Shown here piece after piece: positions 40,813-46,534 of a stretch of DNA of 64,000 bases. The position numbers and the translations under genes were made by a program. The notes under the pieces were generated by a model that was not told the origin of the DNA, ran no database searches, and saw nothing but the letters and a program-made list of their open reading frames with translations. Origin of the DNA: Escherichia coli. Lineage in GTDB: Bacteria > Pseudomonadota > Gammaproteobacteria > Enterobacterales > Enterobacteriaceae. How positions within the stretch are numbered: the first letter of the stretch is position 1; each line of letters starts with the position of its first letter. Where the stretch lies: the NCBI RefSeq assembly GCF_030013205.1, contig NZ_CP122648.1. One strand, 5' to 3'.

Positions 40813-41709
40813 TCAGTAACAGCAGTAGCGAATAAAATAAAAAAATACTGGGGCGGTGAAAATTAATGAGTCAATCCTGTCAAGGAGTCCGCCATGTCCT
40901 GGTAATAGTTTTCCGCTATCTTTAACACCAACATCTCGTTTGATGGCTGACATCACTACATCGCCGCAAAAACCACAAATACCAATTAACAAACCCGCTA
41001 ATAATGCCTGTAATGTATTTAGCGGTGTCAGCAACGGTCCAATAATCAGTGACGCAATCATGGTGGTGATGACGCCCCCCACCAGACCTTCCAGCGTTTT
41101 TCCCGGGCTGACTTTGGGGACCACTTTTCTTCTGCCGCAGGATTTTCCCCATAAATACTGTGCAATATCGTTTGACTCGGTTAACGCCAAAAGAAATAAC
41201 ACCAGTAACGCCCCACCCTGGATATTTATGGTTGGCAACATTACTAACCAGGCGGCATGACTCAAGGCGAAAACGATCATTATCCAGCCCCAAAAAATGG
41301 CGCTCACAGTATGCAGAAAACCGGAGGGGTCCCCCACAAAAACTTGCCCGGTGGCTAATATCAGAAACCCAGCCAAAGGTATAAATAACAGATACAGCTC
41401 AAAGCAATTAAAACCGATAAACAAATAGTTAAGAGGAATAACCCAATATAACCACCGCGGAAGATGTACAGATATAAGCGTACAATATTCTTTCAATGCC
41501 AGAAAACTTATCAGCGCAAAAAACGTCAACGTCATCCAGCGTGGACCTGAAATCACCAGTGAAAAACAAATGACGATGCCCCACCAGGTACGAATACGTA
41601 ATGTAACTTCATCCCCTTTTCTCTCCGGTAACCGCCATACCCGAAAACGGTTTATCAGCGTTGCTAAAATTAACAACGCGAAAAGTGTTGCCAGAGATTT
41701 TTCCAGCAT
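40813..41709 (-). CDS. ynbB: CDP-diglyceride synthetase (CdsA)-like membrane protein
   Basis: ORF 40813..41745; start at internal Met giving 298 aa; polytopic membrane protein. Confidence 0.8.
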   Translation of the reverse strand: MLEKSLATLFALLILATLINRFRVWRLPERKGDEVTLRIRTWWGIVICFSLVISGPRWMTLTFFALISFLALKEYCTLISVHLPRWLYWVIPLNYLFIGFNCFELYLLFIPLAGFLILATGQVFVGDPSGFLHTVSAIFWGWIMIVFALSHAAWLVMLPTINIQGGALLVLFLLALTESNDIAQYLWGKSCGRRKVVPKVSPGKTLEGLVGGVITTMIASLIIGPLLTPLNTLQALLAGLLIGICGFCGDVVMSAIKRDVGVKDSGKLLPGHGGLLDRIDSLIFTAPVFFYFIRYCCY

Positions 41710-42314
41710 TATCTTTCTGCACTCATAAAAAGCACACTCCGACAACGATTAATCGCAGTCCAGAGAAGCAGAATTGAAGCAATGCCCCATAAAAGATTAT
41801 TCCATTGCATCCACTGTGGATAAATGGCAATGGCCAGACCCCACAGACCAAATATTAACGCGCGATCGCTTTTGCCAAATGGACCGGCATAACTGCGAAT
41901 ACCGTTAATCGTCTGCGCGAGTAAACCGCAAAACTCAGTCAATATGGTGCAAAATAACATGAGTATTACGAGTGATGCGTTACTTTCCGGTAAAAATAAA
42001 AACGGTAAATAAAGCGCAATATCGGAAATAACATCGCCTGTTTCATTCAAAATCGCCCCAAGACGTGTTTGCTGATTGCACTCACGCGCCATCATGCCAT
42101 CCAGCGCATTGAGTGCCATACGAATAAAAAGCACGATGGGCAATAGCAGAAACATGCCAGGATATGGCACCAACGCCAACAACAAAGCGGTGAGAAGAGA
42201 AAGTGCCAACGCGGCAAGTGTGATCTGATTTGCAGACACTTGCCGCTTATGAAGCCAAAACATCGTCGGCCTTAACAGCGACTGAAAGAGCGGTTTTATC
42301 TGGTAGAGCGTCAT
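41709..42314 (-). CDS. ynbA: CDP-alcohol phosphatidyltransferase-family membrane protein
   Basis: About 201 aa; membrane protein with CDP-alcohol phosphatidyltransferase-like D-G-x-x-A-R motif region (ALDGMMARE). Confidence 0.8.
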   Translation of the reverse strand: MTLYQIKPLFQSLLRPTMFWLHKRQVSANQITLAALALSLLTALLLALVPYPGMFLLLPIVLFIRMALNALDGMMARECNQQTRLGAILNETGDVISDIALYLPFLFLPESNASLVILMLFCTILTEFCGLLAQTINGIRSYAGPFGKSDRALIFGLWGLAIAIYPQWMQWNNLLWGIASILLLWTAINRCRSVLFMSAER

Positions 42315-42482
42315 TATCAATCCTTGATAATTCTGTTTGCGCTATGGTGCATCAATTGCCCTGACAGAGATATCGCAACACGCCGCTTCAATAAAAATTC
42401 AGAATATATCAAGGTATTGGGGCTCACTGTCAGGAATGATTATCCACAATTAATCAAATAGTTAAAAATATTACGCTGTTAT

Positions 42483-44789
42483 TCAATGCAACTCATCAAG
42501 TTTTCTCATCGCTTGTTCCCGTATTGCGCGCGTCTTATCGTTAAGCGCCAGCTGCCGAACTAAATCCAGTTCAGGGTTAACAAGCTCTAACGCCAGCAAA
42601 GGATCACGTTTCAGCCTCGCCTTTAATACATCAACTGGAAAACGGGGATTATTCATCGCCACAATCCACCACTCGGGATCAATTTCTGCCGCCAGTACTG
42701 CAGGCGGTGTGTGGCGGTTGTTAAGTGCGCCGAACTTGAAAAATGTGAGATTGCTTTTCGCCAGTGTACTCCACCATATACGATCCGGTTGTTTTGCCAG
42801 TTTATCCAGTTGTGCTAATGCATCGGGGTCAAGTGCATAATAAACACGTAACGCTTCGTTAACCTGCGCACGAGAGCTGTTTTCCTGCCTCAGAAAAAAC
42901 TTCGCCCAAATATCATTGCGTGGCATATTTTGCTGTAATTCCTTGAGGACAACAGCGGGTAAATTATCCCAACTAACTAATGCACTCTCTAAAAAGTCCC
43001 AGCCTTCCGAACGTATCAGAGAGGTGGCATTTAATAGCATCTGGTCATCAACTTCACCGTGGCTAATCAGCTCAGACAAAATCATATCAGCGCTGGTTTC
43101 ATATGCTGCAGAATCTGCTTTCGGATTATTTTTCCGATGCGATAAAGCACGTTGCCAAATTTTTTGTTTCATCGACGTGCTCAGATACTGATTTTTCGCC
43201 AAATTACTCCACCCCTCAGGATCGTTGAAACGTGTCAATAACCGTTGTAAAGCAGCGTCAGAGTGAATTATCTGCATATCCCGACAGCAAAAGTAGGCAG
43301 GGGATTTTTTCTCCATCCTTTTAACAAAATTAAACTGTAAGTTATCTGGCAACGCTAAAAATAACGTACCTATTAGATCATCGTCATTCTCGAATTTTTG
43401 GTATAAATATACTGCTATTTTGTGACTCTCTTGTGGCGTCATCCGCAACAATTGACCATGGTGTTTCATCTCTGCCAGCTTTGACGCTAAGCTTGTGACA
43501 ACATCGTTTGATGAATCGTTCGCCAACTGCATTGCCTGATTGTAGGTGAGTTGTCCTCCAGCACCGACCTGACGAATAGAGGAATCATCACTGCGGATAT
43601 AGCCATCAATAATGGATTCGGGCAATAACCACGCATCTTTATAAAGCTCCTGAATGATCATATCCCAATCTCTTTTCGCCAGAGTCATGACGATATCCAG
43701 AGGGAGATTTTCACGTAGCGCAAGATTCAACGGACCGACACCATCAGGTAGATGACTCATTCGCGTCATTATTTCGACAGAGAGCGGTTCTCGGTCGAGC
43801 AACCCCAGAACAACAGGCTGGTAACCCAATTGCTGATCGGTCAACTCCAGAATCTCATTGTCAGGCATATATCTCGCCATACTTGCAATCGTTTGTCCAT
43901 CATTGCTATTAATAAGTTGTTTGCGTAGGTTAGCTGAAATTCCTTTAAGCCTTGGGAGAGTTCGCATTATGGCAAGATCAAATGTCGCAATGTCTCGTCC
44001 TTCAAATGCAGCAACTTTGCCTTCATCCAGCATTTGTAATTCCTGCACTAATTCAGGTGAAGGCTTAGGGCGAAACAGCGCTTCTTTTTTCATCTGATTA
44101 CAGACATTCCCTGCTATGCGAATATTGCTTCGCTTAAAAATTTCTTTCAGAGCATCTTCATCATTTATTAGACCCCAATAATATGCATCAGGATTTATTA
44201 TCATCAGCGCTTTTTTGACATTTTCAGTGTCATTTTTGTCACTCGCACGGACCATGAATTCACTATTTGTCGAAGACGCAACAACAGGTGCAATTATGTC
44301 ATTGATAAATATCCCACGCGCATTAATACTTCCCTTAATCGTAGACGGATTATCGTAATATGAGTCGATAAATACCAGTCCACTTGCATTTATCGAACCG
44401 GTAATTAACAGTGGTGAATCCGTAACTATATTCGTTGCCGTCACATCACCGAGAATAACCCATGGATTAGAAAGAGAGAAAGTGGAAATATTTCCTTTGA
44501 CTGTCAAGTTGCCAGGAACAATCAATTTTTGATTACTCTCTATATTACCGTCTACCACTAAATCGCCACGATGCACTTTCCAGTCCGATGCAGATAAACC
44601 GAAGGGGACAAGATTCACGCTACTGTTGATAGCTTGTTCAACTTGTTGTTTATCTTCAGCGGTAGCCGCAGAAAAAAATGGTTCAATATCAACTGCATTT
44701 GCAACACATCGAAGTTCCGCCTGTACTGGAAGACTCAGCATAAACAGGAGAAGTAAACCTATCCAGCTGCAAATCCTGGGCTTAAACAT
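42483..44789 (-). CDS. ydbD: Large uncharacterized secreted protein (DUF2773-like)
   Basis: About 768 aa; N-terminal signal peptide (LLLFMLSLPVQA). Confidence 0.8.
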   Translation of the reverse strand: MFKPRICSWIGLLLLFMLSLPVQAELRCVANAVDIEPFFSAATAEDKQQVEQAINSSVNLVPFGLSASDWKVHRGDLVVDGNIESNQKLIVPGNLTVKGNISTFSLSNPWVILGDVTATNIVTDSPLLITGSINASGLVFIDSYYDNPSTIKGSINARGIFINDIIAPVVASSTNSEFMVRASDKNDTENVKKALMIINPDAYYWGLINDEDALKEIFKRSNIRIAGNVCNQMKKEALFRPKPSPELVQELQMLDEGKVAAFEGRDIATFDLAIMRTLPRLKGISANLRKQLINSNDGQTIASMARYMPDNEILELTDQQLGYQPVVLGLLDREPLSVEIMTRMSHLPDGVGPLNLALRENLPLDIVMTLAKRDWDMIIQELYKDAWLLPESIIDGYIRSDDSSIRQVGAGGQLTYNQAMQLANDSSNDVVTSLASKLAEMKHHGQLLRMTPQESHKIAVYLYQKFENDDDLIGTLFLALPDNLQFNFVKRMEKKSPAYFCCRDMQIIHSDAALQRLLTRFNDPEGWSNLAKNQYLSTSMKQKIWQRALSHRKNNPKADSAAYETSADMILSELISHGEVDDQMLLNATSLIRSEGWDFLESALVSWDNLPAVVLKELQQNMPRNDIWAKFFLRQENSSRAQVNEALRVYYALDPDALAQLDKLAKQPDRIWWSTLAKSNLTFFKFGALNNRHTPPAVLAAEIDPEWWIVAMNNPRFPVDVLKARLKRDPLLALELVNPELDLVRQLALNDKTRAIREQAMRKLDELH

Positions 44790-44852
44790 ATGCACTCCAT
44801 GCCATTAAAAAAGAAACAAAAGGGAAATGCATCTTTCCCTTTTGTATATTCG

Positions 44853-45713
44853 TTATTCTCGCGAAATACCATCCAACGTAGACAACACTTCCTCAGTAAG
44901 ATGCAATTTTTCAGCAGCCATATTCTCCCGTAAATGCGCAACAGAAGACGTCCCTGGGATCAGCAAAATATTCGGTGAACGTTGTAACAGCCACGCCAGC
45001 GCCACCTGCATTGGTGTTGCACCCAGGCTCGCAGCAACATCGGAAAGCGTGGAAGATTGCAGCGGCGTAAAGCCCCCGAGCGGAAAGAACGGCACGTAGG
45101 CAATGCCGTCACGAGCCAAAGCTTCAATCATTGCGTCATCAGCACGATGAGCAATGTTGTATTCGTTCTGCACACAGACGATTTCGGCAATCTTGCGCGC
45201 CTCTGCAACCTGCGTCGGTGTGACGTTGCTCAGGCCAATATGTTTTACCAGGCCTTGTTGTTGCATCTCTGCCAGCACGGTCAGGCTGGCTTCAATCGAT
45301 CCTTCCGCCGGGCCATGACCATCCCCCATCATGACGCGCAGGTTAACCACATCCAGTACGTCCAGGCCGAGATTACGTAGATTATCGTGTACCGCTTTTT
45401 GCAGCTCTGCCGGAGAAAATGCGGGCAACCAGGAAGCATCCTCACCACGCCGTGCACCAATTTTAGTGACAATTGTCAGCTCGTCAGAGTAAGGATGTAG
45501 CGCTTCGCGGATAATCTGATTGGTGACGTGCGGACCATAAAAGTCGCTGGTATCAATATGATTGACGCCCAATGCCAGCGCCTCGCGCAGCACGGTTATA
45601 GCAACGTGGCGATCTCTTGGGGGGCCAAAAACCCCAGGGCCTGCCAGTTGCATCGCGCCATAACCAAGACGGTTAACGGATTTTGTACCGAGAGTAAATG
45701 TGTTGCTGCTCAT
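44853..45713 (-). CDS. ydbC: Aldo-keto reductase (NAD(P)-dependent oxidoreductase)
   Basis: 286 aa; AKR-family fold. Confidence 0.85.
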   Translation of the reverse strand: MSSNTFTLGTKSVNRLGYGAMQLAGPGVFGPPRDRHVAITVLREALALGVNHIDTSDFYGPHVTNQIIREALHPYSDELTIVTKIGARRGEDASWLPAFSPAELQKAVHDNLRNLGLDVLDVVNLRVMMGDGHGPAEGSIEASLTVLAEMQQQGLVKHIGLSNVTPTQVAEARKIAEIVCVQNEYNIAHRADDAMIEALARDGIAYVPFFPLGGFTPLQSSTLSDVAASLGATPMQVALAWLLQRSPNILLIPGTSSVAHLRENMAAEKLHLTEEVLSTLDGISRE

Positions 45714-45867
45714 CGCACCCTGCCCTGTAATAAAACGGATTAAGAAAAATCAGTATAGAAACGAAAAGAGATAAATAATGCGAAGGCGTAAACAAGATTA
45801 CTGGATGAGTTGCTCTATTGTCCTTGAAGACACCAAAACAAAACGCCTAAAGCATCGCATCCGGCAA

Positions 45868-45903
45868 TAAAAAACCGCAACCTGTATCAGCATTGCGGTT
45901 TAG
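45868..45903 (-). terminator. Rho-independent terminator downstream of paaY
   Basis: Hairpin accgcaa-(12 nt)-ttgcggt followed on the minus strand by TTTTTTATT. Confidence 0.6.
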
Positions 45904-45943
45904 GTATCACATGCTAAAAATTAGAACGTCCAGCATCAGGACG

Positions 45944-46534
45944 TTACTGTTTCGGACGCAGATCCTCATCAAATACCAGACGCTGCCTGCCAGGTTCAAC
46001 TTCCCGCAATGGCTCGACTTGATGCAACGTCTGCTTACAGCGTGTCACCAGCACCTGATACTCATGCGTGCCCTGCTTTTTCCATGCCAGCTCCTGCTCA
46101 CTAAGTTCACGAATCGCTTTCGCCGGGCTGCCGACAATCAGGTAATTAGCAGGCATTTCTGCTTTGGCTTTCACAAATGCGGATGCACCCACAATACTGT
46201 TCTCACCAATCACCGCACCGTCCATCACTACCGCATTCATTCCCACTAATGCATTGCGGCGGATAATGCAGCCGTGAAGGATAGCGCTATGACCAATATG
46301 CCCGTCTTCTTCCACGACAGTATCCTGATCGGGAAAACCGTGCATAACGCAATTATCCTGAATGTTCGCGCCATCTTTCACCACGATACGACCAAAATCG
46401 CCACGCAGGCTGGCATTTGGCCCAACGTAAACGCCCTTGCCGAGAATAACATCGCCGATCAATACCGCTGTCGGATGGACAAAACTCTCTTCTGGTACAA
46501 CCGGAGTCAGACCGTCTATCTGGTAAATTGGCAT
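45944..46534 (-). CDS. paaY: Hexapeptide-repeat thioesterase/acyltransferase PaaY
   Basis: 196 aa; gamma-carbonic-anhydrase-like hexapeptide repeats. Confidence 0.9.

Follow-up and report, generated by a model that had tools for sequence, protein, structure and literature searches.

Bactofilins (PF04519), among them BacA of Caulobacter crescentus (PDB 2n3d) and the Thermus thermophilus protein (PDB 6ria), have a compact core, a right-handed beta-helix with about six rungs, and short disordered tails. They are cytoplasmic, carry no export signal and reach the membrane through a short N-terminal targeting peptide. The LRV protein of Azotobacter vinelandii (PDB 1LRV) joins a shorter alpha-solenoid to an Fe-S cluster domain, and the eukaryotic, cytoplasmic HEAT/ARM scaffolds use a long curved alpha-solenoid as a binding platform.

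Here we analyzed a gene with features of each of these systems in a 64,000-nucleotide stretch of Escherichia coli DNA (NZ_CP122648.1; hereafter the window). The gene, ydbD, is among the remaining uncharacterised E. coli y-genes, for which a solid handle has some value. On balance, we think that YdbD is an exported, non-catalytic two-solenoid protein that acts at low abundance as a periplasmic binding or scaffold protein.

Identity and start site of ydbD

The reading frame and its ribosome-binding site are as follows.

42483..44789, minus strand: coding sequence of ydbD (768 codons, then a stop at 42483-42485), from the ORF list, translation, RefSeq and dN/dS
44795..44798, minus strand: Shine-Dalgarno sequence GGAG, separated by 5 nt from the ATG at 44789, read from the sequence

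A preliminary description of this DNA had placed a protein of roughly 768 residues at 42483-44789. The ORF list and RefSeq both give exactly this length; the coordinates stood, and the strand, which had not been given, is minus. The longest form of the frame begins with a GTG at 44795 and also ends at 42483. Because this GTG overlaps the GGAG, the likely start is the ATG at 44789. RefSeq lists this 2307-nt coding sequence as ydbD, with the product name “DUF2773 domain-containing bactofilin”, in a strain with 100% identity to the window, and the frame is thus an already known E. coli gene. Its low dN/dS and the existence of full-length homologs argue that it is not a chance reading frame. As previously described, it lies between the ynb cluster (ynbA, ynbB, ynbC and ynbD, downstream) and ydbC, the aldo-keto reductase gene now called pdxI (upstream).

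Predicted export of YdbD

We then examined the N-terminus of the protein, which reads MFKPRICSWIGLLLLFMLSLPVQA up to the predicted cleavage site and continues with ELRC.

44718..44789, minus strand: signal peptide of the Sec type (residues 1-24), with SPase I predicted to cut at VQA/EL, from hydropathy and n/h/c anatomy

The signal peptide, which the preliminary description had also noted, was judged by eye and by hydropathy. It has a basic n-region (K3 and R5), an h-region of about 15 hydrophobic residues (I6-L20) and small residues at -3 (V22) and -1 (A24), all as expected of a Sec/SPase I substrate (basic n-region, h-region of 10-15 residues, small -3/-1 residues). This core is the sole strongly hydrophobic segment of YdbD, and residues 1-25 have low pLDDT in the AlphaFold model. 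The signal peptide does not end in a lipobox (L-[AS]-[GA]-C), and YdbD as a lipoprotein was rejected: of the five cysteines (7, 28, 230, 501 and 502), C7 follows PRI and C28 follows ELR, neither of which is a lipobox.

The signal peptide is kept in the Escherichia orthologs, where its residues change fast yet stay hydrophobic, and a second E. coli DUF2773 protein has one as well. After two start-codon corrections, at least 30 of the 42 members of the family have signal peptides, including the two closest non-Escherichia relatives, in which the starts had been miscalled. About 12 of the 42 have no obvious signal peptide (at least one genuinely lacks it), so the fold is not tied to the periplasm. 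Judging from this N-terminal anatomy, YdbD is almost certainly exported and probably periplasmic. The earlier wording “secreted” and “surface factor” therefore stands as predicted Sec export to the periplasm, and secretion or surface exposure goes beyond the evidence. Our literature search found no published localisation experiment on YdbD.

Two predicted solenoids in series

The AlphaFold model of YdbD is confident (pLDDT 87) and places two solenoids in series, with the following segments in the mature protein.

44583..44717, minus strand: N-terminal segment of the mature protein (residues 25-69), in which a single helix (44-53) precedes the beta-helix; from the model (pLDDT ~91 at residues 31-50)
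44247..44582, minus strand: right-handed beta-solenoid with a bactofilin-like fold, residues ~70-181 (about six rungs)
42486..44228, minus strand: all-alpha solenoid, residues ~188-768, about 45 helices in degenerate LRV/HEAT-like repeats, from DSSP of the model
42489..42728, minus strand: Pfam DUF2773 match, residues 688-767 (80 residues), E = 1.5e-43

Residues 25-69 may cap the end of the beta-helix. DUF2773 (PF10971) scored 147.2 bits against a gathering score of 25 bits, over profile positions 1-80 of 81. In the model this region is continuous with the helical solenoid, and at the equivalent region of a homolog (P0062) there is an LRV match; by the model, DUF2773 is no separate domain and corresponds to approximately seven helices with which the alpha-solenoid ends at its C-terminus. 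This work adds that the “DUF2773” label covers just the tail of a long LRV/HEAT-like solenoid.

We next compared the alpha-solenoid with known repeat families. A family profile (A1) was built from 42 full-length homologs, to which YdbD aligns end to end in single stretches, and it matched the A. vinelandii LRV protein at E = 1.6e-22 in three stretches. Pfam matches among the 42 members were to LRV_2 (PF25591; 17/42), LRV (PF01816; 14/42) and HEAT (12/42). Searched by itself against Pfam, YdbD had no LRV match at E ≤ 1, nor did the profile of the enterobacterial subfamily (A4) find 1LRV; since both miss significance, the repeats of YdbD are highly degenerate. Remnants of the LRV motif can still be read in ‘ALNNRHTPPAVLAAEID’ and ‘AMNNPRFPVDVL’, and the model shows alpha-hairpins stacked as in LRV/HEAT-like repeats. 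On sequence grounds, the alpha-solenoid is thus linked to LRV/HEAT repeats through distant full-length relatives. BLASTP self-comparison detected no internal repeats, which indicates that they are too degenerate for pairwise detection. Against solved structures, a search with the single YdbD sequence returned only noise and the enterobacterial subfamily profile gave no match.

Consistent with the earlier statement that YdbD has no recognisable catalytic motifs, Pfam returned only DUF2773 and a sub-threshold bactofilin match, with no catalytic family, and NCBIfam returned only a far sub-threshold MinC match. The protein is not featureless, however, given its two solenoid domains and its RefSeq label. 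The residues invariant across the family are the beta-helix glycines G75, G93 and G114 and, within a repeat motif (LAxN) of the alpha-solenoid, N533. They look unlike a catalytic set and are probably structural. The remote homology and structure prediction proposed in the preliminary description thus return a bactofilin-like beta-helix and an LRV/HEAT-like alpha-solenoid. We looked for homology to a characterised family that would explain the role of YdbD and found only structural repeat homologies, none of which gives a role; the core of the preliminary description stands.

Proposed role of YdbD

From the fold class we infer, generically, a binding scaffold. The Sec pathway would export the YdbD precursor and signal peptidase I would cut after Ala24, freeing a soluble periplasmic protein of ~84 kDa without an enzymatic domain. 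The mature protein would consist of the six-rung bactofilin-type right-handed beta-helix followed by an alpha-solenoid of ~580 residues whose LRV/HEAT-like hairpins are degenerate. As other alpha-solenoids do, this long arm would most likely offer an extended surface for binding a partner, perhaps an envelope protein or polymer, and the rigid beta-helix may be a further module, for interaction or self-association. YdbD would then be an adaptor or scaffold of the envelope, scarce and expressed conditionally, and not a catalyst, which steers experiments toward periplasmic partner-finding and away from enzymology.

Selection on ydbD and its loss

ydbD is under purifying selection, with a dN/dS of 0.18 against Escherichia whittamii, and synteny and full length are kept in E. 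coli, E. albertii and E. whittamii. Within the beta-helix, dN/dS falls to 0.067. A scan of a genome collection with a five-sequence alignment found only Escherichia, plus beta-helix-only matches in Streptomyces and Methylosinus; the family of full-length relatives is sparse but widespread, and most of its members have signal peptides.

Yet the gene is absent from 1436 of 5426 complete E. coli genomes (26%). Strain FDAARGOS_1303 has a clean deletion that leaves the first ~30 nt of the coding sequence and keeps ynbABCD and pdxI, and other alleles carry IS1 and IS5 insertions or in-frame deletions (proteins of 711, 682 and 725 aa). Within the species, dN/dS is 0.32 (against K-12), compared with 0.047 for pdxI, and ydbD expression is below 1 ppm in standard growth (bioRxiv 10.1101/038851).

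The second E. coli DUF2773 protein, a 759-aa paralog at the ppnP-rdgC locus, has the same full-length architecture and shares the DUF2773 C-terminus (27% identity to YdbD over 772 aligned columns; BLASTP 1e-77). It is intact in only 444 of the 5426 genomes, and K-12 retains only its C-terminal DUF2773 remnant, which we take to be ykiA. E. coli once had two DUF2773 paralogs, and both are being lost in parts of the species. The nearest non-Escherichia relatives are 48-53% identical to the paralog versus 31% to YdbD. Translation of the paralog gene is coupled to that of a gene of the SF0329 family (151 aa), whereas ydbD has no such partner; searches for a structure of the SF0329-family protein or for relevant literature found neither.

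The absences, disrupted alleles, relaxed within-species constraint, low expression and attrition of the paralog all fit a dispensable gene that is being lost and lacks an important present-day function in most E. coli. We regard this reading as unlikely, since the between-species dN/dS, lowest in the beta-helix, indicates sustained purifying selection, the gene has been retained in full across three species, and transposon data mark ydbD as a gene that matters for fitness in minimal glucose medium.

Transcription context and the methylglyoxal phenotype

We also examined the surroundings of the gene.

44816..44845, minus strand: terminator-like hairpin with a T-run that follows the stop codon of pdxI and ends 26 nt ahead of the start codon of ydbD, from a terminator scan

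The hairpin has a 12-bp stem followed by TTCTTTTTTA, and an Rfam search of 41500-46000 gave only a chance sub-threshold match on it. No sigma-70-like promoter was found upstream of ydbD on the coding strand. One study reports that sigma-E overexpression induces ydbD 3.9-fold (PMC2731931); a consensus search found no sigma-E-type promoter in ~600 nt upstream at the threshold used, so the sigma-E effect may be indirect. Downstream, ynbABCD begins 160 nt from ydbD with no terminator detected between them. Outside Escherichia, six loci of ydbD relatives had no gene neighbour in common, and genomic context therefore gives no lead to a partner.

Aldo-keto reductases include methylglyoxal reductases, and the neighbour pdxI belongs to this family. 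YdbD might be a methylglyoxal detoxification or resistance protein that acts directly on methylglyoxal or its adducts. A truncated ortholog (P0025) is named ‘protein involved in detoxification of methylglyoxal’ in its source, PMC2731931 calls YdbD ‘induced by methylglyoxal’, and a passage of PMC13313352 ascribes susceptibility of ydbD mutants to the methylglyoxal screen of Kim et al. 2007 (J Microbiol 45:339). We nevertheless consider a direct role quite improbable: neither glyoxalase, DJ-1/Hsp31, aldo-keto reductase nor any other enzyme family was matched at E ≤ 1 in Pfam or NCBIfam, and the modeled fold is a pair of repeat solenoids. The glutathione-dependent detoxification route is cytoplasmic, and predicted export would put YdbD away from it. 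Transposon insertions in ydbD could also be polar on ynbABCD. As a methylglyoxal enzyme YdbD was rejected, with glyoxalase I/II/III and aldo-keto reductase unmatched in Pfam, NCBIfam and PDB sequence searches. The phenotype, as relayed in that passage of PMC13313352, has no account under the scaffold model.

Is YdbD a bactofilin?

The RefSeq name suggests that YdbD could be a genuine bactofilin, that is, a cytoskeletal polymer assembling end to end through its beta-helix into a cytoplasmic filament or a periplasmic “periskeletal” one, in the latter case with the alpha-solenoid arm recruiting envelope factors. In its favor, the modeled beta-helix of YdbD can be superposed on the solved bactofilins over nearly the whole bactofilin core (2.5-2.7 Å). 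The sequence comparisons point the other way. Against residues 78-141 the Bactofilin HMM scored 15.1 bits (E = 0.027), below its cut-off of 27.9 bits; none of the 42 family members matched it at E ≤ 0.01, short relatives that have the beta-helix alone likewise fall outside the Pfam family, and the family profile found no bactofilin chain in the PDB. The VQA/E Sec-type peptide, where bactofilins have their membrane-targeting peptide, counts against a cytoplasmic role. In place of disordered tails, YdbD has its beta-helix fused to the 580-residue alpha-solenoid, and in the model folded segments flank the beta-helix on both sides, which we infer would hinder end-to-end contacts. We therefore hold a genuine bactofilin to be improbable; judged by the model, the “bactofilin” label is valid at the fold level only, and it would be unsafe to assign YdbD a cytoskeletal role from its RefSeq name.

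It is very unlikely that YdbD is an adhesin-like factor, secreted or exposed at the surface, that adheres through its beta-helix, as it lacks a C-terminal beta-barrel, TPS domain (neither was found in Pfam), lipobox and sortase-type signal, its C-terminal 580 residues are all helical in the model, no usher, TpsB or type II secretion gene was found adjoining ydbD, and long alpha-solenoids are unusual for passengers translocated across the outer membrane; autotransporter and TPS adhesins were rejected on these grounds.

Comparison with known systems

The preferred reading, a periplasmic binding or scaffold protein, reveals no new kind of system. A bolder extension is that the members of the YdbD family are bactofilin-type proteins which, once exported, use the beta-helix to self-assemble in the periplasm, with the LRV/HEAT arm positioning envelope enzymes. 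We keep it, because the fold matches and export is predicted, as a long shot of very low probability. If true, the family would be the first bactofilin-fold polymer outside the cytoplasm, and would form a periplasmic “periskeletal” scaffold, for which only unrelated proteins are known to date; a literature search on bactofilin with periplasm or signal peptide found no exported bactofilins.

With respect to the A. vinelandii LRV protein, the solenoid of YdbD is much longer, YdbD is predicted to be exported, and the Fe-S cluster domain is absent, with none of its cysteines in a cluster motif. For the helical part, Foldseek matched best (E ~1e-4) to HEAT/ARM scaffolds such as the PP2A A subunit, karyopherin-beta2 and designed armadillo proteins, with TM-scores of 0.13-0.28 and identities of 10-13%, a likeness of architecture class without sign of common descent. 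It is the use of such long curved alpha-solenoids as binding platforms that forms the basis for the mode of action we propose for YdbD.

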